Shown here: in pieces, positions 6,392 to 7,873 of the stretch
Position numbering within the stretch: the stretch's first letter is position 1
Layout: each line of letters starts with the position of its first letter
Origin: Candidatus Thorarchaeota archaeon
GTDB lineage: Archaea > Asgardarchaeota > Thorarchaeia > Thorarchaeales > Thorarchaeaceae
Assembly (NCBI GenBank): GCA_011364905.1
Contig: RDNZ01000063.1
Location: 1 to 11,912 of the forward strand
Reading direction: 5' to 3'
Length of the DNA: 11,912 nucleotides
Notes under the pieces: generated by a model
Databases searched by the model: none
Told to the model about the DNA's origin: nothing
What the model saw: the letters and a program-made list of their open reading frames with translations, nothing else
Program-made: the position numbers and the translations under genes

Positions 6392-6437
6392 TCTGCCTAT
6401 GGACCAATGAAGATTCTAACATTTGGAGGGTTTCCCC

Positions 6438-7136
6438 TTGGAAACAGGAACAAGTATCTATGCAGTGCGTACGACTATCGGACAGGAACGTAGTGTCACA
6501 GACTTGATCACCACAGCGGTGGTTGGCGAAACAGATGTCTGGCGATGTCCGTTCTGCCGTGAGGAATTCTCAACCGAGAAAGCAACCAAAGAGCACATGA
6601 GTAGTTGTAAGAAGAAGAAAAAGAAGAAGGGGAAGCCAGAGTTAGTGTCCAAAAACCAGTTACTTGGTCGTGTAAAAGCAATCCTTGTTCCTGAAACACT
6701 CAGAGGCTATGTCTTCATTGAAACTACAGAGTTCAGAGATGTTGAGATAGCAATCTCTGGTGTTCCTCATGTAAGAGGTCGGGTTGGAGGAAAAGTCAGT
6801 CTGGAGGAAATCGACAAATTCCTTGCACCACCTCCTGCTGCCGAAGGCATCTCAATTGATGACGTAGTCGAGATCATCTCTGGACCATTCAAGGGCGAAC
6901 GTGCAAAGGTTGTGCGTGTGGACGCTGGAAAGGAGGAACTTATCCTAGAACTGCTGGATAGTCCATATACCATTCCGGTCAGAGTACATGCGGACTTTGC
7001 GAAAATCGTAGAGCGCGCAGAGAAGAAAGAGGAGCCAGCCGAAGTAGTTGGAGAGAAGGCTGAGGGAGCGGACACAGATGCCTTTGATGATGATGACTCT
7101 TTCTGGGCTCATGAGGAAGAAGAGGAAGAGGAATAG
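6438..7136 (+). CDS. spt5: Transcription elongation factor Spt5 (NusG family) with an inserted zinc finger and acidic tail
   Basis: NGN motifs IYAVRTTIGQE and AILVPETLRGYVFIE; KOW motif DDVVEIISGPFKGERAKVVRVD. TTG6438 lies 8 nt after GGAGG (6425-6429), so it is preferred over 6423. Confidence 0.95.
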   Translation: METGTSIYAVRTTIGQERSVTDLITTAVVGETDVWRCPFCREEFSTEKATKEHMSSCKKKKKKKGKPELVSKNQLLGRVKAILVPETLRGYVFIETTEFRDVEIAISGVPHVRGRVGGKVSLEEIDKFLAPPPAAEGISIDDVVEIISGPFKGERAKVVRVDAGKEELILELLDSPYTIPVRVHADFAKIVERAEKKEEPAEVVGEKAEGADTDAFDDDDSFWAHEEEEEEE

Positions 7137-7372: not shown

Positions 7373-7873
7373 TTGAGCGAAAAAGACGTTATTGTAGACG
7401 CGATGGTTGAGGGAGGGAAGGCTAGCGGTGGTCCTCCTATTGGTCCCGCTTTAGGACCCACTGGTGTCAACATCTTCCAAGTCGTGACAAAAATCAATGA
7501 GATTACACAGCCCTTTGCAGGATTGAAGGTGCCGGTAAAGATAATCGTTAACCCGAATGACAAAAGTTTCGAGGTTGAGGTTGGAACACCACCAACAAGC
7601 GCATTGATCCTGAAGGAAGTTGGAGTGGCAAAGGGTTCTGGAGAGCCTAGTACGAATATTGTTGGAAATCTCACTCTAGACCAAATCAAAAATATCGCAA
7701 AGGGAAAGGCGAGTGACCTCTCTGCTCTTTCTATGAAGTCAGCGGTCTTGATAATCTCAGGCACCTGTGGTCAGATGGGTGTGACAATTGAAGGCAAGCG
7801 TGCTAAGGAGTTCCAGGCAGAGGTTCAAGAGGGCACATGGGATGCTCAGCTGGACGAGCCACTTAGGGAGTGA
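7373..7873 (+). CDS. rpl11: 50S ribosomal protein uL11
   Basis: VEGGKASGGPPIGPALGP, VPVKI, VGTPPTSALI, VGNLT and GTC..MGVTIEG. Start set to TTG7373 after AGGAG (7357-7361); the ORF-track extension to 7325 is not L11-like. Confidence 0.96.
   Translation: MSEKDVIVDAMVEGGKASGGPPIGPALGPTGVNIFQVVTKINEITQPFAGLKVPVKIIVNPNDKSFEVEVGTPPTSALILKEVGVAKGSGEPSTNIVGNLTLDQIKNIAKGKASDLSALSMKSAVLIISGTCGQMGVTIEGKRAKEFQAEVQEGTWDAQLDEPLRE

Follow-up and report, generated by a model that had tools for sequence, protein, structure and literature searches.

Spt5/NusG is, to our knowledge, the only transcription factor that is conserved in all life, and the Asgard lineage, to which the genome analyzed here belongs, is close to the root of the eukaryotes. 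The topologies of the NGN and KOW domains of this factor are very alike across life, the eukaryotic KOW1 insertion excepted (review, PMC7819879). An accessory domain within the NGN fold has been described for NusG of Thermotoga maritima and Aquifex aeolicus, in which this domain, DII, is reported to support recruitment to and stabilization of the elongation complex (PMC7819879). According to a recent survey, the zinc-finger insertion in the S1 domain of metazoan Spt6 (SID) and the KOW1 insertion of eukaryotic Spt5 are also lineage-specific modules in a conserved elongation-factor domain (PMC13289920).

The Thorarchaeal Spt5 described here shares with canonical archaeal Spt4/5 (TIGR00405; P. 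furiosus 3P8B, M. jannaschii 3LPE/4ZN1/4ZN3, T. kodakarensis 9BCT) the NGN and KOW domains, the clamp-binding and Spt4-contact residues (AVRT, and GYVFIE with its invariant Glu), a separate Spt4 of the C4 zinc-ribbon type, the secE-spt5-L11 context, and the presence of a single copy. It differs from them in three features of its family: a finger module, a loop of 8 residues in Spt4, and a long acidic tail with a DSFW motif. When compared at the level of architecture, DII is likewise an accessory domain within the NGN fold, but it is a bacterial domain of much larger size, which is no zinc finger and has no Spt4 partner. The SID and the KOW1 insertion belong to other proteins, domains, and lineages than the Thorarchaeal finger, and no homology is implied. 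The original prediction, made from the nucleotide sequence alone, knew of no described zinc-finger Spt5, and no description of the Thorarchaeal Spt5 finger or of the Spt4 loop was found in the literature that we searched. The feature is not mentioned in those passages of the 2026 elongation-factor survey, which includes 218 Asgard proteomes, that deal with Asgard archaea, zinc fingers, and insertions (PMC13289920), and databases record these proteins as NGN plus KOW only, under the name Spt5 or NusG. A conserved and selected domain insertion in the core of Spt5, paired with a change in Spt4, shows that this factor is elaborated in archaea, too. The Spt5 finger is not ancestral to the features of eukaryotic Spt5.

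The spt5 gene and its insert

The window, that is, the whole stretch of DNA that was analyzed (11,912 nucleotides), holds an archaeal ribosomal and transcription gene cluster encoding eL31, eIF6, prefoldin alpha, FtsY, ornithine carbamoyltransferase, a sugar kinase, FtsZ, SecE, Spt5, L11, L1, L10/P0, and L12/P1, among which eIF6, FtsZ, SecE, Spt5, and L11 were confirmed by Pfam and the remaining names were read from translations. The gene order ftsZ-secE-spt5-L11-L1-L10-L12 includes two segments, ftsZ-secE-spt5 and L11-L1-L10-L12, whose arrangement is known from Asgard archaea (PMC10833476). The longest frame for L11 (7325-7873) begins 25 residues ahead of the Pfam L11 N-terminal domain, and the true start may be an internal Met near position 7400, which matters for reading the spt5-L11 spacer as a leader.

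The spt5 gene (6423-7136, + strand) encodes 237 amino acids, with a TTG start and a stop codon at 7134-7136, as given by the list of open reading frames and the translation. Its product is a canonical, single-copy archaeal Spt5: it matched TIGR00405, the Spt5 equivalog of NCBIfam, with 139.7 bits (E 6.7e-41; cutoff 69.95), the Spt5 NGN family PF03439 with 63.7 bits (cutoff 22.4), and the KOW family PF00467 with 32.4 bits (cutoff 22.3), and it was the single Spt5 match in the genome, whose completeness is 80.8%. A model of the whole protein was obtained with AlphaFold2 (AF2) from an alignment of 42 Spt5 sequences (mean pLDDT 76.5), and the top Foldseek match of this model was P. furiosus 3p8b_B (E 1.5e-15), followed by T. 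kodakarensis 9bct_G and M. jannaschii 4zn3_A and 4zn1_A; the rows to 1m1g, 1npp, 2xhc, and 2lq8 in the same search arose through the shared NGN and KOW parts. The Pfam match to Spt5-NGN was split into two stretches, the best at residues 75-134 (with KOW at 146-171), and the TIGR00405 alignment was confined to residues 83-200, because an insert interrupts the NGN domain.

This insert comprises 47 to 48 residues (6525-6668) between helix 1 and strand 2 of the NGN domain, and a gap of 47 columns stands opposite it when the protein is aligned to insert-less Asgard Spt5. The original prediction had located such an insert correctly and had put its size at about 40 extra residues, which is slightly low; the insert peptide that it quoted, the coordinates of the ligands, and the position of the seven lysines agree exactly with the translation of 6423-7136 on the + strand. 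On the N-terminal side of the insert, the first part of the NGN domain (6453-6524, + strand; residues 11-34) contains strand 1 (SIYAVRTT) and helix 1 (QERSVTDLITTAVV), as assigned from AF2 and an alignment of Asgard Spt5, with the strand at model residues 4-10, the helix at model residues 15-28, and a pLDDT of 86-92 for the block.

The insert itself consists of three parts. The finger core (6525-6608, + strand; residues 35-62) is predicted to form a beta-hairpin, with a short strand W-R-C and a bridge E-F, followed by a helix (EKATKEHMSS), and the putative ligands are C42, C45, H58, and C62. The codon of G35 starts at 6525, and those of the four ligands at 6546, 6555, 6594, and 6606, respectively. 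The motif W-x-C-x2-C-x3-F-x8-H-x3-C is read directly from the translation, which bears out the earlier claim of a classical finger spacing (C-x2-C-x12-H-x3-C for the ligands) within the NGN domain of the sole Spt5, and its aromatic positions are a W two residues ahead of the first Cys and an F four residues past the second. The motif is followed by the second part, a run of seven lysines (K63-K69; 6609-6629, + strand) that is encoded by AAG and AAA codons and forms a loop joining the finger helix to an extra strand. This run is a 21-base purine tract, which varies from K5 to K9 among species of the genus, and a tract that is prone to slippage, and whose frame is maintained by selection, is expected to vary in length in this way. 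The third part is the conserved return segment KPELVSKNQLLG (6633-6668, + strand; residues 71-82, with the codon of L81 ending at 6665), which is predicted to run as an extra beta-strand (ELVS or LVSK) into NGN strand 2, and this strand was placed at model residues 66-69 in the model of the whole protein and at 44-47 in the model of the insert only. When the 2,770 open frames of at least 150 amino acids in this genome (966,805 residues) were searched, a loose form of the finger pattern occurred twice and the pattern with both aromatic positions occurred once, in Spt5.

Downstream of the insert, the second part of the NGN domain (6669-6830, + strand; residues 83-136; Pfam NGN at 75-134) comprises strands 2-4 along with helices 2-3. 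Within it lies E100, a Glu that is invariant in Spt5 alignment A1 and is the counterpart of Glu46 of M. jannaschii Spt5, which is a contact to Spt4 (Hirtreiter 2010, PMC2896526). The linker and the KOW domain follow (6831-7022, + strand; residues 137-200; PF00467 at 146-171; five strands in the AF2 model), and the protein ends in an acidic C-terminal tail (about 7020-7133, + strand) with the DSFW motif at its end, which is predicted to be disordered (model residues 194-215 and 224-230 have pLDDT values under 50). The DSFW (or GFW) motif was found in the Spt5 sequences read from the family, and Spt5 of the neighboring family stops soon after the KOW domain, without a DSFW/GFW tail motif.

When the insert was folded alone with AF2, the same secondary-structure elements were obtained as in the whole protein, with pLDDT values of 87-88 alone and about 80-85 in the whole protein (79-88 overall). 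The top Foldseek rows for the insert-only model were the BCL11A, Tramtrack, and MYST C2HC fingers, with an rmsd of about 1 A over 24-30 columns and E values of 0.7 or worse, and there was no match at E 0.001 or better in this search. All matches to the zinc-finger families of Pfam were likewise below threshold, namely zf-C2H2_jaz (18.6 bits, cutoff 22.6), zf-C2H2_4 (18.8 bits, cutoff 27), zf-C2H2_2, and zf-MYST, and a phmmer search of the PDB with the finger gave a best E value of 0.044, with matches to B-129 of a Sulfolobus virus, a designed finger, and INSM1. The profile of the module summed to significance only on proteins with many C2H2 fingers. When it was compared with 1.84 billion representatives, two single-stretch matches of full length were obtained, both to clusters of Thorarchaeal Spt5 (P0125 and P0126); the rest of the best 150 rows listed were multi-finger proteins, which were matched through the finger part only. 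The module has the same spacing, the two aromatic positions, and the predicted strand-strand-helix order of classical C2H2/C2HC fingers (the zf-C2H2 group, the MYST finger, SSV B-129 2WBT, and AFV1p06 2LVH). In contrast to these, it is single, embedded in another domain, uses Cys as the fourth ligand, has an acidic core and an extra conserved strand, and scores below threshold. On the basis of the models, the description that suits it best is that of a single classical beta-beta-alpha finger, in which Cys is the fourth ligand, plus a conserved return strand, and the Cys2-His-Cys site would be expected to bind zinc.

Distribution and conservation of the insert

The comparison set consisted of the species representatives of 85 other species from 16 genera of the same GTDB family. 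An Spt5 match was found in 84 of them, and the match spanned the insert in 83, with all 16 genera covered; the two exceptions were the genome without an Spt5 match and a genome in which the gene is split over two contig ends. Furthermore, hundreds of metagenome proteins with 78-97% identity covered 80-100% of the query, insert included. Among the matches listed from 400 Asgard species, every one from outside the family started at query residue 76 or beyond, so that the original prediction of a lineage-specific module is upheld, with insert-spanning matches throughout the family and none listed outside it. The order has only one other family, whose sole genome (L048) is without the insert and has the short loop TTV-NTDKIAG-VKAILVPE at this place, and a short loop was also found instead of the insert in twelve other Asgard genomes whose genes were read. 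As judged from this distribution, the ancestor of one Thorarchaeal family gained a module of 47 to 48 residues in the loop between helix 1 and strand 2. The neighboring families with and without the module thus provide a compact natural experiment on an extra surface on the Spt4 side.

The first three ligands (Cys, Cys, His) were invariant in all 50 family sequences read, and the fourth Cys was present in 47 of the 50, one of which has H-x4-C spacing. The remaining three represent all species of a single genus (L035, L050, and L116), which have a Glu at the fourth position (HMKKE) and keep the rest of the module. Conservation of the ligands in relatives, on which the zinc-finger reading depended, therefore held completely for three of them and for the fourth outside this genus. 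In the genus with Glu, the zinc site is either completed by Glu or water, or left incomplete in a finger that folds nonetheless. This substitution and the co-occurring Spt4 loop described below go beyond the original prediction. In Spt5 alignment A2, the invariant positions include the C, P, C, F, and H of the finger and the P, N, L, and G of the return segment, and the fourth Cys comes close to invariance.

The substitution rates point in the same direction. Within the genus, the dN/dS of the insert (0.04) lay between that of the NGN and KOW cores (0.01) and that of the C-terminal tail (0.12) (pooled Nei-Gojobori, 13 species), and these ratios are rough, as the within-genus dS is high (about 1.8). 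Between genera, at which distance synonymous sites are saturated, pN was 0.26 for the finger, 0.18 for the return segment, and 0.09-0.13 for the core, and the pN/pS of the return segment (0.21) was below that of the finger. By these measures of codon change, the insert is under purifying selection.

The Spt4 partner

Whether spt4 is intact had been raised as a point to be checked, and an intact Spt4 is indeed encoded on another contig of the same genome, outside the window (contig 7, L063:957-1160). It is a C4 ribbon of 67 amino acids, located after rpoE', and it matched PF06093 with 36.4 bits (cutoff 25). Of the 85 family genomes, 79 yielded an Spt4, and none of the 24 high-quality genomes in the order lacked it. 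With Spt4 present and intact, the finger was ruled out as a substitute for it.

Spt4 of the family contains 8 extra residues between its last strand and its C-terminal helix (pattern LPGRxxxEDPRxxSY), and this was the case in 15 of 15 aligned sequences from 11 genera. The insertion is absent from five outgroup genomes, those of the neighboring family and of four other Asgard archaea, in which DP-E-x-S is found instead. It has been shown for M. jannaschii that the sheets of Spt4 and Spt5 join edge to edge, that the C-terminal helix of Spt4 packs on helices 1 and 3 of the NGN domain, and that Ser39 of Spt4 bonds Glu46 of Spt5 (PMC2896526). In the Thorarchaeal protein, E100 is located at the end of strand 3, adjoining the start of strand 2. 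Because the insert exits from helix 1 and re-enters at strand 2, near this Glu-Ser contact, we infer from the topology of the published structures that the Spt5 insert and the Spt4 loop share one corner of the heterodimer. The charges of the two loops co-vary, with a rho of 0.86 over 14 genomes, which are related by descent and not independent of each other. This is suggestive of one surface of tuned charge, as far as sequences can indicate it, rather than of a salt-bridged pair. An uncontrolled complex prediction for Spt4 and the isolated finger module (residues 6-52 of alignment A2) gave an ipSAE of 0.00 in both runs, which speaks neither for a contact nor against one.

Possible roles and origin of the module

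The original prediction proposed that the module is a nucleic-acid- or protein-binding element, an interpretation that was supported in part. The idea of a nucleic-acid module is qualified by the charges read from the family sequences: nearly all of them have an acidic finger core (mean charge -2.9), and the charge of the loop after the finger ranges from +7 to -3 across genera, being basic in most and acidic in one. In one genus the whole insert has a charge of -3 to -10. The length and charge of the Lys-run loop differ among genera, from K5-K9 through to an acidic loop. Thus, K7 has the look of an electrostatic addition that is derived in this genome, and the conserved part looks like a scaffold or a protein-contact element beside Spt4. 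Because the core is acidic and one genus has an acidic loop, a role in binding nucleic acid fits this genome and not the whole family. What is conserved family-wide is the scaffold and not basicity, and therefore a docking role or a purely structural role is a serious rival.

The best explanation, which we put forward tentatively and by analogy with known complexes, is that the finger may act as a rigid scaffold on the Spt4 side that offers its loop to upstream DNA or the non-template strand. By the topology of published structures, the finger would sit on the Spt4 side of the heterodimer, and together with the Spt4 loop it would add to the surface that upstream DNA follows on leaving the polymerase. 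The rigid finger could then hold out the loop that follows it, which is K7 in this genome, toward the backbone of upstream DNA or of the non-template strand. Such a role would resemble those of the basic NGN residues of Pyrococcus, of DII of Thermotoga NusG, and of the eukaryotic KOW1 insertion. It has been reported that upstream DNA and the non-template strand run along a basic surface of Spt4/5 in published models and structures (PMC3094117), and that four NGN residues that are important for activity in Pyrococcus contact the upstream duplex (bioRxiv 10.1101/2024.01.05.574147). Upstream DNA in the eukaryotic complex is encircled by Spt4, NGN, and the enlarged KOW1, and these close a DNA-exit tunnel, which is predicted to be open in archaea because their KOW1 is without the insertion (PMC6150629). 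Since upstream DNA could be within reach of a K7 loop that a rigid finger holds out at the Spt4 corner, scaffolding of a DNA-directed loop is the reading that we prefer for this genome.

Alternatively, the finger and the Spt4 loop could form a composite surface that recruits a protein partner to the elongating polymerase, with the Lys run being secondary, a possibility that we regard as real if somewhat doubtful. Candidates for such a partner include a termination factor (FttA/aCPSF1), a chromatin protein, the ribosome, and a lineage-specific factor. Conservation within the module is highest in the residues that determine the fold and in the return strand, and not in the basic loop, which argues for docking, as does the acidic finger core, which would be unusual for a finger that reads DNA. 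Furthermore, both partners of the heterodimer are altered at neighboring positions (PMC2896526 for the geometry), and Spt4 faces away from the polymerase and is hence accessible (PMC3094117). However, both loops drift from basic to acidic across genera, which would be odd for a fixed protein interface, and no candidate partner was identified, nor any gene specifically tied to the locus. The more specific proposal, that the finger and the Spt4 loop are a dedicated recruitment site that couples transcription to termination, chromatin handling, or translation, is rather doubtful; if true, the decoration of Spt5 with recruitment modules, as known from eukaryotes, would have a precedent in prokaryotes.

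It is also conceivable, and in our opinion unlikely, that the module is a structural brace only, which would pack together with the Spt4 loop and strengthen or reshape the heterodimer without an external ligand. No such brace is needed for stability by other archaeal Spt4/5, those of hyperthermophiles included (PMC2896526), and an exposed loop of seven lysines within an insert under purifying selection, with the within-genus dN/dS given above, is hard to explain as packing. On the other hand, both insertions are family-wide and lie at adjacent points of a known interface, and the appearance of the extra strand in the insert-only model also suggests a compact, self-contained domain. A role as a ubiquitin-binding finger that reads a ubiquitin-like mark is very improbable. 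The Cys2-His-Cys spacing of the module is that of fingers of the NEMO/UBZ4 type, and an SLX4 chain was among the weak sequence matches (E 0.57), but the neighbors in sequence and fold are general classical and MYST fingers and not UBZ domains, and the genome (80.8% complete) gave no match to the ubiquitin family PF00240. Finally, that the insert is an assembly chimera, which the original prediction had itself raised, or a neutral, decaying passenger is hardly credible, since nothing speaks for it except that one genus has lost the fourth Cys, and it is excluded by the in-frame insert in the independent assemblies of 83 other species, the many metagenome proteins, and the strong purifying selection.

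As to where a module of this kind may have come from, an HMM of the finger searched against the 54,526 six-frame open reading frames of this genome found Spt5 alone, the next best having an E value of 0.43, and a donor gene or paralog within the same genome was thereby ruled out. Some of the proteins matched by the profile look prokaryotic, and their tandem C2HC fingers share the pattern CPYC...HM..CP.K with the Spt5 finger. Among these, P0265 is a protein of 173 amino acids with two tandem C2HC fingers that are 35-41% identical to the Spt5 finger over 26-27 residues. Its gene (L118:4001-4522 and L119:1455-1976) is located in a block of small unknown genes on one strand, beside genes for a resolvase and a DUF5131 protein, and this block is probably a mobile element or a virus. 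Classical fingers of archaeal viruses were also among the nearest solved structures to the module. Capture of the finger from a mobile element, with P0265 as a possible type of donor, is offered here as a lead rather than a result.
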